A stretch of 64,000 nt of DNA from an uncultured Acidobacteriota bacterium (lineage in GTDB: Bacteria > Actinomycetota > Acidimicrobiia > Spongiisociales > ZC4RG35), in assembly GCA_963822895.1 (NCBI GenBank), contig CAWGJI010000014.1:51337-115336 (forward strand), read 5' to 3'. The notes beneath the pieces were generated by a model. It worked only from the letters and a program-made list of their open reading frames with translations. It did not search any database and was not told the origin of the DNA. Shown here piece by piece: positions 10,989 through 38,335 of the stretch (positions are counted from its first letter, which is position 1; each line of letters opens with the position of its first letter). A program made the position numbers and the translations under genes.

Positions 10989-11200
10989 ACACCACTGATT
11001 CATCCCTTGTCGCGTCTGGCAGTTCGATCGTGGGGGTCCAGAGCGACAACTCGGAGCCTCATCCCTTACCGGCCCCTCCAACACAACGCGGCCCTGGTGC
11101 ATGGGGTGCCCGAGCGGCCGGGTCATGGCGCTGCGCGCCCGGACCTGGAACCAGCCTTGCCCGATGTGGGTCGACCACTTCAGCAAAGGCCCGATGGCGG

Positions 11201-12737: not shown

Positions 12738-13055
12738 TCAGTTGAGGCCAAGAACGGTGAGGATTGCCGCGTCAACGCCCCACTGCTCCTCGGAGGTGAG
12801 ATGACCGGCCATGTCACCGAGGCGTCCGACGTCGACTGCACCCATCTGCTCCACGAGGACCCTCGTCTCGGTGCCCTCGATCTCGATTTCGGGTCGGAAT
12901 GAGGCGCTTCTTGCGCTGCTGGACGTGGGCGCGATCAGAACGACGGACCGGGAGAGTAGTGCGTCCGACTGAACGATCACGCCGAAGCGCCTTCCGTGTT
13001 GTTCATGGCCGATGCCCTTGGGAAGCCGGAGCCGGAAGACGTCACCTCGACGCAC
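12738..13055 (-). CDS. MazF/PemK-family endoribonuclease toxin.
   Basis: The motif 'RGDVFRLRLPKGIGHEQHGRRFGVIVQSD...LIAPTSS' is present. The GTG start overlaps the antitoxin stop by ~14 nt. Confidence 0.7.
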   Translation of the reverse strand: MRRGDVFRLRLPKGIGHEQHGRRFGVIVQSDALLSRSVVLIAPTSSSARSASFRPEIEIEGTETRVLVEQMGAVDVGRLGDMAGHLTSEEQWGVDAAILTVLGLN

Positions 13056-13281
13056 GCAGGCTCTCCATGAGTTCGGCAACTGCAAGCATCTCAGCACGGT
13101 CTGTTTCGTCCGCCTCGAGGGCTGCAGCCTCCGCAGCGAGAGCATCCTTGTCTTTCAGCTTCGATGCGGCTTCCACCAAGGCAGAACGGATCGCTTCCGA
13201 TCGTGACTTCCCGGTCGCCTCCAACTGTGCCAGAGCCCTCATCGCTTCGTCGTCGAGTCGAACTGAAACTGGCTGGGCCAT
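13042..13281 (-). CDS. Ribbon-helix-helix (CopG/MazE-like) antitoxin.
   Basis: 'VSVRLDDEAMRALAQLEATGKSRSEAIRSAL' is an RHH motif. The gene sits immediately upstream of the MazF-like gene and co-directional with it. Confidence 0.65.
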   Translation of the reverse strand: MAQPVSVRLDDEAMRALAQLEATGKSRSEAIRSALVEAASKLKDKDALAAEAAALEADETDRAEMLAVAELMESLRASR

Positions 13282-13473
13282 AACTCAAATCGTATCACAT
13301 TCCGTAATACAAAGGAAGATTTGTCGGAAGAGCCGCGAATCGACCCATCGTTTGTTGGCACAGACTGACCAGCCCTTCGTCCGGATCACTGCACCGATTT
13401 CACTGGGCGCCCACTCAGTTCCAAAGGTCCAGGTGGTGATGTGAGAGGAGCTTGCCGAACCCTCTTTGCCTGA

Positions 13474-13710
13474 TCAGTCCGGATCGGCCTGCCCCGAATA
13501 CTCCTCGGCGGCGCGGATCGCCTCCGAGGCTTGCTCTTCTACCCGATGCTCGATACTTGGATCGAATATCTCCTCAAAGGGGCCAGGTGTATACACCCGA
13601 GGCGGTCGTATCGTGTAGAAGATCCACCCTCGCGTCTGGGCCCATAGGGCGAGACCGTGAAGCCCGTACAGCAGGGCGACAACTGCGACAGCGATGAACA
13701 GAAACTTCAT
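13474..13710 (-). CDS. Small membrane protein.
   Basis: The N-terminal TM helix 'MKFLFIAVAVVALLYGLHGLALW' is followed by an acidic tail. Confidence 0.35.
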   Translation of the reverse strand: MKFLFIAVAVVALLYGLHGLALWAQTRGWIFYTIRPPRVYTPGPFEEIFDPSIEHRVEEQASEAIRAAEEYSGQADPD

Positions 13711-13896
13711 CTGTAATCAGGAGCGATTGTCGCAGAGGCACGTGGGAATGAGGGAATTGATCCGGCGACATCCGACTACTACCGCCCATATCTGACAGCC
13801 AGATTGGCAAGGTTCTGACCCTCGTCGCAGCCGGACCGACCCGCCTAATCCTCAACGACCACGGCGCTCTCCACCCCTACGTCCCTATTCCACTGC

Positions 13897-14286
13897 CTAC
13901 TGGATGAGTTCGGCGTTGGCTGATGCGGCTGCCAGGCCGGAGTCAGTCGTGATGATGGTTGCGTGGAGCTGATTGGCGAGCTCGATGTACAGGGCGTCGA
14001 CGAGACGGACGTTGTGATGTAGTGCCCAGGCGCCTTCGAGAAGCGGGGCGAGTAGGTGGCGGTGGAATGGTGCCTGTGCAGTGAGGGATACTCGTTCTTG
14101 CACCTGGAGTTGGCTGAGTTCTCCACCACGTTGCAGACGACCCAGGGCTGACAGGACTTCGGCGTCAAAGTGCGCCGGCACGTTGACCTCGCTGTCTTTA
14201 AGGCGCGTGGCGACGAGCTGGCCCAGTGAAGAAGCGACCAGGTGGTCGACCATCGCTGACGCATCGACTACGAGCTTGTCAGCCAC
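13897..14286 (-). CDS. vapC: PIN-domain toxin, VapC-like, copy 1.
   Basis: 'MADKLVVDASAMVDHLV' begins a PIN fold of 129 aa. It overlaps the upstream RHH gene by 8 nt. Confidence 0.75.
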   Translation of the reverse strand: MADKLVVDASAMVDHLVASSLGQLVATRLKDSEVNVPAHFDAEVLSALGRLQRGGELSQLQVQERVSLTAQAPFHRHLLAPLLEGAWALHHNVRLVDALYIELANQLHATIITTDSGLAAASANAELIQ

Positions 14287-14509
14287 CCTCGAGCTCGTCC
14301 TTGGCCGATTTCACCGCCTCGAGCACTTTGTCGTGGCTGATGCCGGGAGAGGCGAGTTCAGCGACGCGTTGTTGCCATCGTGCAAGGTTCTGTGCTGACA
14401 GCGATGACCGGATCGCTTGCTGTGTGAGGCTCGAGATGTTGAGGCCAGCAGCCTTGGCCTCCTCGGCGAGTTCGTCTGGCAGATAGACGTTGACACGTGA
14501 CATGCGCAT
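14279..14509 (-). CDS. vapB: RHH antitoxin, VapB-like, copy 1.
   Basis: The RHH motif 'MRMSRVNVYLPDELAEEAKAAGLNISSL' is present. The start is ATG ~14509 or ~14503. Confidence 0.7.
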   Translation of the reverse strand: MRMSRVNVYLPDELAEEAKAAGLNISSLTQQAIRSSLSAQNLARWQQRVAELASPGISHDKVLEAVKSAKDELEGG

Positions 14510-14639
14510 AATATACACATCAGGAGCGATCGCGAGCAACGAACCACCAGTCTGAGCTCAGCCGGGGCGCAGTTCAGATCTGAGAAGAGTATTCACATCG
14601 GCACGTGTCGCTCGGCTCAGAACCTCCAGTTTCACTGGG

Positions 14640-16290
14640 GACGGCGGATCCCTATTGCTGACCAGGTGGTCACTCTGCAGCAATGGGCATTGGCGGGGGT
14701 GCCACCCTGGTCGCGAGAATGAGACTCGGAGCTCTCGGTCTCTGACCAAGCTGACGGCTCATGCCGATCGAGACGCACATCGAATGCCGGAGGGAAGCCT
14801 GTTGTCACGCATGCAGAGTCACATGTTGATTTCTTTATGAGCCGTTCCGCCAATGCTCTTCCAGTCGGAATCGTCGGCGGGGGCATTCTCGGGCTGGCAG
14901 TCGGCCGCGAGCTCACGAAACGCAATCCGGGCGTCGAGGTCATTGTGTTCGAGAAAGAGGGCCAGCTGGCGGTCCACCAGACCGGGCACAACTCGGGTGT
15001 CGTCCATGCGGGCATCTACTACAAGCCTGGTTCCCTCAAGGCTCAGCTCTGCGCGCGGGGGAGGACCCTGCTGCGCGAGTACTGCGCCGAGCACCAGCTT
15101 CCATACGACCAATGCGGGAAGCTGGTCGTGGCCGTCGACCCATCCGAGATGGGCCGGCTGGAGAACCTGGAGAAGACTGCCTCCGAGAACGGTGTGCCCG
15201 GTCTCAGGCGGGTCGATGGCGGCGAGATCGCCGAGATCGAGCCACACGCTGCAGGGCTGGCCGCGCTTCATTCTCCGACCACGGCCATCACCGACTATGT
15301 CGCAATCGCACGATCGTATGCACGCGACATCGAGGAGGCAGGGGGGCGGATCCTGCTCTCGTCCGAGGTGACAGGCATCGAGCGCCGGGTCGGGTCGATC
15401 GAGGTGCGGACCGAACGAGATGCACGCAAGGTGGGTCGGCTGGTGGTCTGCGCCGGTCTCCAGTCAGACCGGGTCGCCGAGCCGGTGGACGGCGAGAGCG
15501 CCCCACGAATCGTCCCCTTCCGCGGGGAGTACATGAAGGTGGTCGACTCCAAGCGCGACCTGGTGCGAGGGTTGATCTATCCGGTACCCGATCCTCGCTA
15601 CCCGTTCCTGGGTGTTCATTTCACCTCAATGGTTTCCGGCGACCTCGAGGTAGGCCCCAATGCCGTGCTTGCCCTGAAACGGGAGGGCTATCGCAGACGG
15701 GACGTGAATCTCGCCGATGTCGGCAGCATCGTCTCCTGGCCGGGGTTCTGGCGCATGGCCGCATCGAATTGGCGAGCAGGCATCGAAGAAGTCTGGGGCT
15801 CGATCTCCAAACGCGCCTACATGAAGAAGGCCAGCCGGTATGTGCCCGACATCGGCCCAGAAGATGTGGTCAGGGCGAGAGCCGGGGTGCGGGCCCAAGC
15901 GCTCGATCGGGACGGGTCGTTGGTCGACGATTTCAGGATCTTCGAGAGTGACGGGGTGCTCACGGTCCGCAATGCCCCCTCGCCTGGGGCCACGTCGAGT
16001 CTCGCCATCGCCGAGTACATCGTCGATCAGATGAAGACTTCCGGTGAGCGCCATTGATGGCGCCGGAAATGTCACAGCTGGAGCCGGCATACCCTCGATC
16101 GATGGTCTTGACCCGCCAGGTGTTGGCCGATATCGACGACGGATGTTTCGATGTGGACCCGAGTCTCGAGTGGACGCGCCGCGTGCGTCCTGGGCTCCGT
16201 TTGACCCTTGTTTGACGCCGCCAAGCGGACTCAGCGGAATCCACAACCACCACACGCCTCCCCGGCCCAAACACGTCCTGGTCCACTACT
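14640..16290 (+). repeat. lhgO segment, copy 1 of a dispersed ~1.65-kb duplication.
   Basis: It is about 97% identical to 36720..38335 and carries a ~40-bp indel after the stop codon. Confidence 0.8.
14837..16057 (+). CDS. lhgO: L-2-hydroxyglutarate oxidase (FAD-dependent), copy 1.
   Basis: The FAD-binding 'VGIVGGGILGLAVGREL' and the LhgO/YgaF-family length of 406 aa fit this call. Confidence 0.7.
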   Translation: MSRSANALPVGIVGGGILGLAVGRELTKRNPGVEVIVFEKEGQLAVHQTGHNSGVVHAGIYYKPGSLKAQLCARGRTLLREYCAEHQLPYDQCGKLVVAVDPSEMGRLENLEKTASENGVPGLRRVDGGEIAEIEPHAAGLAALHSPTTAITDYVAIARSYARDIEEAGGRILLSSEVTGIERRVGSIEVRTERDARKVGRLVVCAGLQSDRVAEPVDGESAPRIVPFRGEYMKVVDSKRDLVRGLIYPVPDPRYPFLGVHFTSMVSGDLEVGPNAVLALKREGYRRRDVNLADVGSIVSWPGFWRMAASNWRAGIEEVWGSISKRAYMKKASRYVPDIGPEDVVRARAGVRAQALDRDGSLVDDFRIFESDGVLTVRNAPSPGATSSLAIAEYIVDQMKTSGERH

Positions 16291-16675
16291 GGATGAGTTC
16301 GGCGTTGGCTGATGCGGCTGCCAAACCGGAGTCAGTCGTGATGATGGTTGCGTGGAGCTGATTGGCGAGCTCGATGTACAGGGCGTCGACGAGACGGACG
16401 TTGTGATGTAGCGCCCAGGCGCCTTCGAGAAGCGGGGCGAGCAGGTGGCGGTGGAACGGTGCCTGTGCAGTGAGGGATACTCGTTCTTGCACCTCGAGTT
16501 CGCTGAGTCCTCCACCACGTTGCAGACGACCCAGCGCTGACAGGACTTCGGCGTCAAAGTGCGCCGGCACGTTGACCTCGCTGTCTCTGAGGCGTGTGGC
16601 GACGAGCTGACCCAGCGAAGAAGCGACCAGGTAGTCGACCATCGCTGACGCGTCGACTACGAGCTTGTCAGCCAC
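16286..16675 (-). CDS. vapC: PIN-domain toxin, VapC-like, copy 2.
   Basis: It differs from copy 1 at 6 of 129 residues. Confidence 0.75.
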   Translation of the reverse strand: MADKLVVDASAMVDYLVASSLGQLVATRLRDSEVNVPAHFDAEVLSALGRLQRGGGLSELEVQERVSLTAQAPFHRHLLAPLLEGAWALHHNVRLVDALYIELANQLHATIITTDSGLAAASANAELIQ

Positions 16676-16898
16676 CCTCGAGCTCGTCCTTGGCCGATTT
16701 CACCGCCTCGAGGACCTTGTCGTGGCTGATGCCGGGAGAGCTGAGTTCAGCAACGCGTTCTTGCCATCGTGAGAGGTTCTGTGCTGCCAAGGATGATCGA
16801 ATCGCCTGCTGTGTGAGGCTCGAGATGTTGAGGCCAGCCGCCTTGGCCTCCTCGGCGAGTTCGTCTGGCAGATAGATGTTGACACGTGACATGCGCAT
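16668..16898 (-). CDS. vapB: RHH antitoxin, VapB-like, copy 2.
   Basis: The motif 'MRMSRVNIYLPDELAEEAKAAGLNISSL' is present. Confidence 0.7.
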   Translation of the reverse strand: MRMSRVNIYLPDELAEEAKAAGLNISSLTQQAIRSSLAAQNLSRWQERVAELSSPGISHDKVLEAVKSAKDELEGG

Positions 16899-17018
16899 AG
16901 TATACACATAGAGAAAGCGATCACGAGCAACGAACCACGAGTCTGAGCTCAGCCGCAAGCACCTAGTCCGGGTGCACTTCGCTGCCTCAACAGCACCTGG
17001 TTCATTGCCTAGTCGACT

Positions 17019-17618
17019 TCAGGGATCGAGCGATTTGCGCAGCGCACGCACTGCAGCCAGCACCCCCTCGTAGGTTTCCAAGAGTCTTGGCCCCCCGCGC
17101 AACAGAGTTCGCCGATGTATGTCGGCTTCTATCCAATCCCAACTGGCACGGTCGTATGTTGCAAAACACAGTCGCACAGCCTCGACGAACGTGACATCGG
17201 TGCCATCGGTTGCCTGTGTGATCCGATCAACGATCAAAGACTCGAGCGTGATGACTTCGACGGCCTCAGTCTCATTCAGTTTCACGGGAGCCCATTCGCC
17301 ATCGACTACTGATCCTGGAAACTCGACAGGCCAGCGTTCGCCGTCACTGAACGTGTACGCGAAATGGTCGCCCTGGATCTGCTCGAACCCGAGATCCCTC
17401 AGAGCCTGGCGATCCTCCTCATCTAGGTATGCACACATGTCGACGTCGGTCGGTCGATACACGCGGGTGTGCAGGTTGACGGCTGCCCCGCCAACGAGGA
17501 CAGCCGTTCCTTTGAGTGCGTAATCCGCTGCCTTGGCAAGCCAGAGGGATCGGTCGATTTCGTCGCTGTTTCGGTCGGCCTCAGCGAGCGCTCGTCTTGC
17601 TCTCCCTAAGTCTCTCAA
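17019..17618 (-). CDS. Nucleotidyltransferase-fold (Pol-beta-like) protein, a putative toxin or abortive-infection effector.
   Basis: 'GTAVLVGGAAVNLHTRVYRPTDVDMCAY' fits the hG[GS]...DhD nucleotidyltransferase signature. Its start overlaps the upstream HTH gene by 4 nt. Confidence 0.4.
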   Translation of the reverse strand: MRDLGRARRALAEADRNSDEIDRSLWLAKAADYALKGTAVLVGGAAVNLHTRVYRPTDVDMCAYLDEEDRQALRDLGFEQIQGDHFAYTFSDGERWPVEFPGSVVDGEWAPVKLNETEAVEVITLESLIVDRITQATDGTDVTFVEAVRLCFATYDRASWDWIEADIHRRTLLRGGPRLLETYEGVLAAVRALRKSLDP

Positions 17619-17983
17619 CGTCGCGTGGCGAGCGACTCACGCTCAATCTGTGTATCAAGACCGAGCATTTCCTTGCGCTCAAGTCGAGCCACAGGGTCAG
17701 AAGGCCCGATACCCGTACGCGCAAGCATGTCAGCAGAGCGCTGCGCCCACACCTTGATCTCACTCAGTGAGGTCTCATTCCGCCGAGGGGACTCGAGGTC
17801 GCTGAGGCTTCCTCCGTAGCACGACAGAAGCTCGAGGATTGTCGAGATTCGAGGGTCGGCTTTGCCCGTTTCGATATTGCATATCTGAGACCGGCTGATT
17901 CCAGTTGTCTTGAAGACATCAGTGATAGACATGCGATTCAGCTCTCGCATCTGTCGCAACTTGTAGGTGTTGAGAGATGTCAT
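17615..17983 (-). CDS. XRE-family helix-turn-helix regulator, a putative antitoxin/repressor.
   Basis: The HTH_3 motif 'MSITDVFKTTGISRSQICNIETGKADPRISTILEL' is present. Confidence 0.7.
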   Translation of the reverse strand: MTSLNTYKLRQMRELNRMSITDVFKTTGISRSQICNIETGKADPRISTILELLSCYGGSLSDLESPRRNETSLSEIKVWAQRSADMLARTGIGPSDPVARLERKEMLGLDTQIERESLATRR

Positions 17984-36491: not shown

Positions 36492-36719
36492 AACCCGCCA
36501 CCCATTCGCAGGTGGGGATGCCACCTCGCCGCCTGGCCGAACGCCGCCTCCCCAACGATGCCCGGTGCAACCTCGTCCGAGGCTCGGGCCAGAGAGCCCT
36601 ACACGCTGTACAGCTGGAGTGGTGCCTGACCGTGACTTGTCACCTAACTACCTAACGGCCCGAATCCCCAACAACCACGGTCTTCACAAGGCAGCACGCC
36701 CTGATTCGTTGAGGGGGGA

Positions 36720-38335
36720 CCGCTGTCGCTGACGAGGTGGTCACGCTGTGGCAACAGCATTGGCGGGGGTGCCACTCTGGTCGCGAGAATGAGACTCGGA
36801 GCTCTCGGTCCCTGACCAAGCTGAAGGCTCATGCCGATCGAGACGCAAATCGAATGCCGGAGGGAAGCCTGTTGTCACGCATGCAGAGTCACATGTTGAT
36901 TTCTTCATGAGCCGTCCCGCCAATGCTCTTTCAGTGGGAATCATCGGCGGGGGCATTCTCGGGCTGGCAGTCGGCCGCGAGCTCACGAAACGCAATCCGG
37001 GCATCGAGGTCGTCGTCTTCGAAAAAGAGAGACGGCTGGCGGTCCACCAGACCGGGCACAATTCCGGTGTCGTCCACGCCGGCATCTACTACAAGCCTGG
37101 TTCCCTCAAGGCTCAGCTCTGCGCGCGGGGGAGGACCCTGCTCCGCGAATACTGCGCCGAGCACCAGCTTCCATACGACCAATGCGGGAAGCTGGTCGTG
37201 GCCGTCGACCCATCCGAGATGGGCCGGCTGGAGAACCTGGAGAAGACTGCCTCCGAGAACGGTGTGCCCGGTCTCAGGCGGGTCGATGGCGGCGAGATCG
37301 CCGAGATCGAGCCACACGCTGCAGGGCTGGCCGCGCTTCATTCTCCGACCACGGCCATCACCGACTATGTCGCAATCGCACGATCGTATGCACGCGACAT
37401 CGAGGAGGCAGGGGGGCGGATCCTGCTTTCGTCCCAGGTGACAGGCATCGAGCGCCGGGTCGGGTCGATCGAGGTGCGGACCGAACGAGATGCGCGCAAG
37501 GTGGGTCGGCTGGTGGTCTGCGCGGGTCTCCAGTCAGACCGGGTCGCCGAGCCGGTGGACGGCGAGAGCGCCCCACGAATTGTCCCTTTCCGAGGGGAGT
37601 ACATGAAGGTGGTCGACTCCAAGCGCGACCTGGTGCGAGGATTGATCTATCCAGTACCCGATCCTCGCTACCCGTTCTTGGGCGTTCATTTCACCTCCAT
37701 GGTTTCCGGCGACCTGGAGGTCGGCCCCAATGCCGTGCTTGCGCTGAAACGCGAGGGCTATCGCAGACGGGACGTGAATCTCGCAGATGTTGGCAGCATC
37801 GTCTCTTGGCCGGGGTTTTGGCGTATGGCTGCATCGAATTGGCGAGCAGGCATCGAAGAAGTCTGGGGCTCGATCTCCAAACGCGCCTACATGAAGAAGG
37901 CCAGTCGCTATGTGCCCGAGATCGGCCCAGACGATGTGGTCAGGGCGAGAGCCGGGGTGCGGGCCCAAGCGCTCGATCGGGACGGGTCGTTGGTCGACGA
38001 TTTCAGGATCTTCGAGAGCGATGGGGTGCTCACGATCCGCAATGCCCCATCGCCGGGGGCCACATCGAGTCTCGCCATCGCCGAGTACATCGTCAATCAG
38101 ATGAAAGACTTCCGGTGAGCGCCATCGATGGTCTTGGCCCCCCGGGTGGTGGGCGATACCGACGACGGATATTTCGATGTGGACACGAGTCTCGAAAGGG
38201 CGGCACTCGTGGCGTCCTGACTACGGAGTCGATTTGAAATCGTCGCCGGTTTGACCGTTGTTTGACGCCGCCAACCGGACTCAGCGGAATCCACAACAAC
38301 CACAGCAGCCCCCGGCCCAACATGTCCTAGTTCGT
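36720..38335 (+). repeat. lhgO segment, copy 2.
   Basis: It is homologous to 14640..16290. Confidence 0.8.
36907..38118 (+). CDS. lhgO: L-2-hydroxyglutarate oxidase, copy 2.
   Basis: It is a 403-aa near-identical paralogue of 14837..16057. Confidence 0.7.
   Translation: MSRPANALSVGIIGGGILGLAVGRELTKRNPGIEVVVFEKERRLAVHQTGHNSGVVHAGIYYKPGSLKAQLCARGRTLLREYCAEHQLPYDQCGKLVVAVDPSEMGRLENLEKTASENGVPGLRRVDGGEIAEIEPHAAGLAALHSPTTAITDYVAIARSYARDIEEAGGRILLSSQVTGIERRVGSIEVRTERDARKVGRLVVCAGLQSDRVAEPVDGESAPRIVPFRGEYMKVVDSKRDLVRGLIYPVPDPRYPFLGVHFTSMVSGDLEVGPNAVLALKREGYRRRDVNLADVGSIVSWPGFWRMAASNWRAGIEEVWGSISKRAYMKKASRYVPEIGPDDVVRARAGVRAQALDRDGSLVDDFRIFESDGVLTIRNAPSPGATSSLAIAEYIVNQMKDFR

Follow-up and report, generated by a model that had tools for sequence, protein, structure and literature searches.

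A probable strain-specific mosaic of toxin-antitoxin-type modules in an Acidimicrobiia genome, with a repeated vapBC cassette and an Xre-nucleotidyltransferase pair

The window analysed here, a stretch of 64 kb of DNA, carries on its minus strand four overlapping two-gene modules of toxin-antitoxin (TA) type within ~5 kb (positions 12738-17983). These are a mazEF pair (ribbon-helix-helix (RHH) and PemK domains), two vapBC pairs (CcdA-like RHH and PIN domains) and an Xre-type helix-turn-helix (HTH) gene coupled to a gene for a 199-aa protein with a nucleotidyltransferase (NTase) fold. An earlier note on this DNA had placed four such pairs here and had named their folds; the pairs are present, and the folds were named correctly throughout, including the NTase guess, which was borne out by a structure model and fold searches. 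None of the 53 small ORFs elsewhere in the window has a TA-family Pfam match, so the clustering of TA genes is real for this window. As had also been stated, the stretch is not flanked by tRNA, integrase or transposase genes: the whole 64 kb contains no tRNA gene, and no integrase or transposase domain was found among the ORFs scanned ~10 kb to either side, the flanking ORFs being two-component, lactonase, SDR, proS, enolase, LacI and ABC-transport genes. The borders are thus not those of a classic genomic island, which would be marked by a tRNA, integrase or transposase gene. PADLOC models matched none of the toxins and recognised a generic HTH domain alone (RmrA, HTH_VI, capH), so that the proposed defence-type role found no support. 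An Rfam scan of 11-20 kb gave two snoRNA matches, both at chance level and both within vapC, and a promoter and terminator scan yielded nothing beyond shuffled expectation.

The mazEF module lies at the left end of the stretch. mazF (12738-13055, minus strand, 105 aa) encodes a PemK_toxin domain (E = 1.4e-16, 61.1 bits against a cut-off of 23.1), and mazE (13042-13281, minus strand, 79 aa) encodes an RHH antitoxin (RHH_1, E = 1.4e-6) directly upstream in the same orientation, with an overlap of 14 nt. The longest ORF for mazF extends to 13145; the GTG at 13055 is the likely start, and the 105-aa version is also the gene call in the sister contigs L090 and L092. A protein identical to MazE in a sister MAG carries the name CopG-family protein. 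By analogy with the family, MazF would be an endoribonuclease that is kept inactive by MazE. Between mazE and the first vapBC pair lies a 78-aa ORF (13474-13710, minus strand) with a hydrophobic N-terminus, which had no match in Pfam, NCBIfam or PADLOC. It is present in contigs L090-L093 and stays beside mazE in the sister strains; as far as can be told, it is not a TA component.

In both vapBC pairs vapB precedes vapC with an overlap of 8 nt, all genes being on the minus strand: vapC-A (13897-14286) and vapB-A (14279-14509) in the first pair, vapC-B (16286-16675) and vapB-B (16668-16898) in the second. The PIN domains of the two VapC proteins score 37.4 and 38.3 bits (cut-off 23.6) and the CcdA-type RHH domains (PF07362) of the two VapB proteins 35.0 and 33.4 bits (cut-off 22.4). 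The four acidic residues of a PIN active site can be read from the VapC sequence as D8, E43, D97 and D115, and, by family knowledge, VapC may be a metal-dependent PIN RNase that is held inactive by VapB. The pairs form part of a longer repeat on the minus strand: copy A (13897-14564), comprising vapC, vapB and an upstream region of ~55 bp, and copy B (16286-17007), which connects the lhgO segment described below with the Xre-NTase locus. The two are direct repeats with 94% identity (13897-14564 against 16286-16955), so the two vapBC pairs are not independent events. The claim of four modules thus stands for the number of pairs; the kinds of module are three, both vapBC pairs being copies of one cassette.

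The same cassette of ~0.7 kb occurs in at least four contexts, between which the same-side flanks have no significant similarity (z > 4). Copy B is 99.1% identical to a copy in L148 over 672 bp, other matches of L148 to the window being 79-86% identical, and it is 91.5% identical to copies in L149-L152 over 722 bp. A third VapC paralogue lies on the window's own 734-kb contig, and the genome holds at least three copies of the cassette. Judged by these sequences, the vapBC cassette has spread recently, both within the window genome and between genomes. Its block of high identity stops at the vapC stop codon. When the cassette ends were compared by eye in four contexts, no attC site, terminal inverted repeats or target duplication were found; downstream of the vapC stop codon there is no space for an attC site, the upstream end carries a 10-bp palindrome, CTGAGCTCAG, and the match between cassette ends is imperfect (~9 of 15 bases). 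The plasmid collection gave no match to the cassette.

Copies A and B bracket an lhgO segment on the plus strand (14640-16282), which consists of the L-2-hydroxyglutarate oxidase gene lhgO (14837-16057; NF008726, E = 5e-166) and conserved 5' and 3' flanks. Its counterpart in L090 is 93.9% identical. A second lhgO segment (36711-38331, plus strand), 90% identical to the first, lies outside the stretch. Tandem duplication of a larger unit made up of the lhgO 3' flank and vapBC was considered and not adopted, the flank similarity being marginal.

Comparison with sister strains, a check that the earlier note had proposed, revealed that the arrangement varies, a result in favour of that note. Copy A of vapBC is absent from L090-L092 and present in the independent contig L093; in L090-L092 the counterpart of window positions 13760-14683 is 173 unrelated bp, so the difference is not a clean insertion. 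Copy B is absent from L090 and L088, which have other neighbours at that place: in L090 lhgO is followed by an ADH gene in place of vapBC-B. The alignment with L088 breaks at 17027-17028, being 99.75% identical to the right and unrelated to the left, where L088 has DUF1003 and EAL genes that are missing from the window. In the sister assembly mazEF and Xre-NTase are located on separate contigs with differing neighbours, so the cluster looks like a recent fusion, which we favour over a hotspot, a site that repeatedly attracts modules. Two contigs of one sister MAG are 99.75% and 94-95.5% identical to the window; either their bin is a mixture of strains, or recombination or a chimeric join has affected the window contig near 17027.

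The housekeeping context suggested for the cluster did not hold up as a conserved frame. Relatives with a ProS 83-93% identical have proS as the only part in common with the window, homology ending at 11189 and 12645, and as these relatives share proS alone, the gene is unusable as an anchor for defining a hotspot; the lhgO gene in the middle of the stretch is itself duplicated. Synteny around proS in species-representative genomes was also tried and was uninformative, the best relatives being 65% identical with no neighbouring gene in common.

These data are probably best explained by a recent, strain-specific mosaic that contains three kinds of TA-type module in four copies, its history being one of cassette insertion and recombination. 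In the most likely course of events two modules would have been resident in the lineage, mazEF adjoining proS and Xre-NTase adjoining the enolase/LacI sugar cluster. Copies of the cassette, composed of a putative promoter region, vapB and vapC, would have inserted first, and recombination at or between these copies may then have fused the mazEF and Xre-NTase loci. In the window one copy now lies between the 78-aa gene and lhgO, the other exactly at the point of contact of the lhgO segment with the 3' end of the NTase gene.

A different explanation is an assembly artefact that affects the whole cluster or at least its right half: the contig would have been mis-joined, either across the repeat formed by the vapBC cassette or from sequences of strains that co-exist, and vapBC-B, lhgO and the NTase locus would not be true neighbours. 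Several observations could be read in this way: the point at which vapBC-B adjoins the NTase gene (~17007-17028) occurs in this contig alone and has no independent support, the exact VapB-B protein is carried solely by the 734-kb contig, contigs from one sister MAG match at 94-95.5% identity to the left of this point and at 99.75% to its right, and a 670-bp repeat with 94% identity is a classic mis-join site. The left half, however, with mazE, the 78-aa gene and vapC-A, recurs at 97.6% identity in L093, an independent assembly from another run. Moreover, vapBC is missing from both partner sites in the sister strain, so a mis-join through the cassette would still require two additional real insertions. 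Finally, the sites that differ between copies A and B are scattered along the whole length, and copy B is coherent, resembling the L148 copy throughout at 99.1% identity; no hybrid pattern, as would be left by recombination between the copies, was found in it. We therefore regard an artefact as improbable.

We give a similarly low probability to the idea of two long-standing vapBC paralogues that gene conversion has kept similar, the sharp edges of identity marking conversion tracts. This would agree with the high-identity block ending exactly at the coding unit and with the lack of any transposition signature, and a stretch of ~60 bp downstream of vapC-A is ~70% identical to the lhgO 3' flank (z = 6.3, against L090 only). 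That flank similarity is marginal, however, and old paralogues are difficult to reconcile with the absence of the cassette from both sites in sister strains. In addition, the L148 copy is 99.1% identical while other shared genes are 79-86% identical, so that transfer between genomes is needed.

The Xre-NTase module, at the right end of the mosaic, comprises the NTase-fold gene (17019-17618, minus strand, 199 aa), which we annotate from its predicted structure and fold searches as a MenT1-like putative toxin, and xre (17615-17983, minus strand, 122 aa), a putative antitoxin and autorepressor with an HTH_3 domain (E = 1e-9) and a C-terminal extension of ~55 aa. The genes overlap by 4 nt. The structure model of the 199-aa protein (pLDDT 93.8) confirmed a predicted NTase fold, of Pol-beta type with motifs I and II (hG[GS] and DxD), and the catalytic-type residues are kept across a divergent alignment. 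After the core, (E/D)(S/D)LxxDR, T137-D138, E146 and R149 are invariant, with no invariant lysine, as read from the alignment alone. Against Pfam the protein scored nothing above threshold, DUF6036 falling short of it (E = 0.024, 14.9 bits against 23.6), and DUF1814/AbiEii (PF08843) did not match it even at E ≤ 10. Among its relatives PF08843 was reached by one of 45 close ones (E = 0.037) and, at E ≤ 0.01, by two of 75 distant ones (best E = 3.5e-5). DUF6036 and DUF2204 were reached by 32 and 22 of the 75 distant relatives, respectively (best E = 5e-10), and these relatives link the NTase by sequence to the DUF6036, DUF2204, NTP_transf_5 and AbiEii families. Searches of PDB sequences with the NTase sequence and profiles returned chance-level matches only, the link to MenT1 being visible in fold comparison alone.

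The partner gene is conserved. In ~47 of 54 metagenome loci the gene immediately upstream of that for the NTase encodes a full-length Xre homologue; the two genes mostly overlap by 4 nt, and the identity of the homologue declines in parallel with that of the NTase. Clustering of the neighbourhoods of 25 loci and the window found the NTase in all and Xre in 24 of the 25 loci, with no other real gene in common; as the pair alone is conserved, Xre-NTase is a self-contained module. No HEPN partner of the kind found in type VII TA systems was detected, the xre gene being the sole conserved neighbour. The family is small, with 255 clusters among 1.84 billion representative proteins, and the plasmid and phage collections contained no NTase match. 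By analogy with related families the MenT1-like NTase might add nucleotides to tRNA 3' ends and so block aminoacylation, and Xre might neutralise it through the C-terminal extension and repress the operon through the HTH domain. In two of the representatives, P0323 and P0390, HTH and NTase are fused in one protein, an arrangement that fits poorly with a labile-antitoxin model. The pair could instead consist of a small-molecule (antibiotic) nucleotidyltransferase, comparable to the aminoglycoside and lincosamide enzymes ANT(2'') and LnuA, and its own Xre repressor, and would then not be a TA system; we consider this unlikely.

A more far-reaching proposal combines two statements, that the vapBC unit is mobile in its own right within and between Acidimicrobiia genomes without a linked recombinase and acts like an IS element in reshuffling the genes around it, and that Xre-NTase is a new family of MenT1-like, tRNA-modifying toxins with antitoxins of Xre type. 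Cassette copies would then serve homologous recombination, giving rise to the bracketing of lhgO and to the fusion of the two loci. Taken as a whole this proposal is doubtful, if slightly less so than the reading of Xre-NTase as an antibiotic-modifying pair.

The plain reading of the stretch as a recent mosaic changes little in general terms: both the clustering of TA modules and their variation from strain to strain are already known, with MazEF and VapBC as textbook systems. Two points go further. The near-identical vapBC cassette in unrelated contexts and at strain-specific junctions points to a TA pair as a possible driver of rearrangements in the chromosome. The Xre-NTase family, for which Pfam has no model but whose MenT1-like fold is confidently predicted and whose Xre partner is strictly conserved, may offer a compact new case for the control of tRNA-nucleotidylating toxins by unrelated antitoxins.

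Overall, the systems assembled here are of known kinds, with the addition of one MenT1-like variant and a mobile vapBC cassette. The mazEF pair resembles type II MazEF systems in its domains, its antitoxin-first order and its short overlap, and the vapBC pairs resemble type II VapBC systems in the same features as well as in the acidic PIN residues and the occurrence of several copies per genome. The vapBC paralogues of M. tuberculosis are old and divergent. In contrast to those multi-copy arrays, the copies described here are 94-99% identical, so their spread is very recent, and they sit on either side of a metabolic gene, at junctions that are specific to the strain. The direct repeats around a passenger gene, lhgO, are reminiscent of composite transposons and of IS-mediated rearrangement, and so is the position of one repeat at a rearrangement junction, as is often true of IS elements; the repeat, however, codes for a TA pair rather than a transposase, and comparison by eye revealed neither terminal inverted repeats nor target duplications.

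For the NTase, members of the DUF6036 and DUF2204 families are related in that distant members of the window family reach these models, whereas the window NTase and the relatives close to it score too low to pass; in the literature searched DUF2204 is named once, in an unrelated study, and DUF6036 is not named. Nucleotidyltransferase toxin systems of the MenAT/AbiE type occur in M. tuberculosis and Streptococcus. The window NTase is 18% identical to the toxin of MenAT1 (Rv0078B-Rv0078A) of M. tuberculosis and has no DUF1814/AbiEii Pfam match. Residues of motifs III and IV in MenT1 are the conserved lysine K137 and the aspartate D152; in the window NTase, as far as the alignment alone tells, the helix after the core has (E/D)(S/D)LxxDR without a recognisable conserved-lysine DUF1814 motif. 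The partners differ: MenA1, of 68 aa, lacks a DNA-binding domain, and AbiEi and MenA4 are COG5340 winged-helix proteins, whereas the partner here is a 122-aa Xre protein with an HTH_3 domain, not of the MenA/AbiEi type. In the pairing of domains, by which alone the two are likened, the module corresponds to Xress-MNTss of Streptococcus suis, reported as an auto-regulated type II TA system with an Xre antitoxin and a nucleotidyltransferase toxin (PMC8406773). MNTss was modelled on kanamycin nucleotidyltransferase and was toxic only on periplasmic targeting (PMC8406773), whereas the family found in the window is MenT1-like and actinobacterial.

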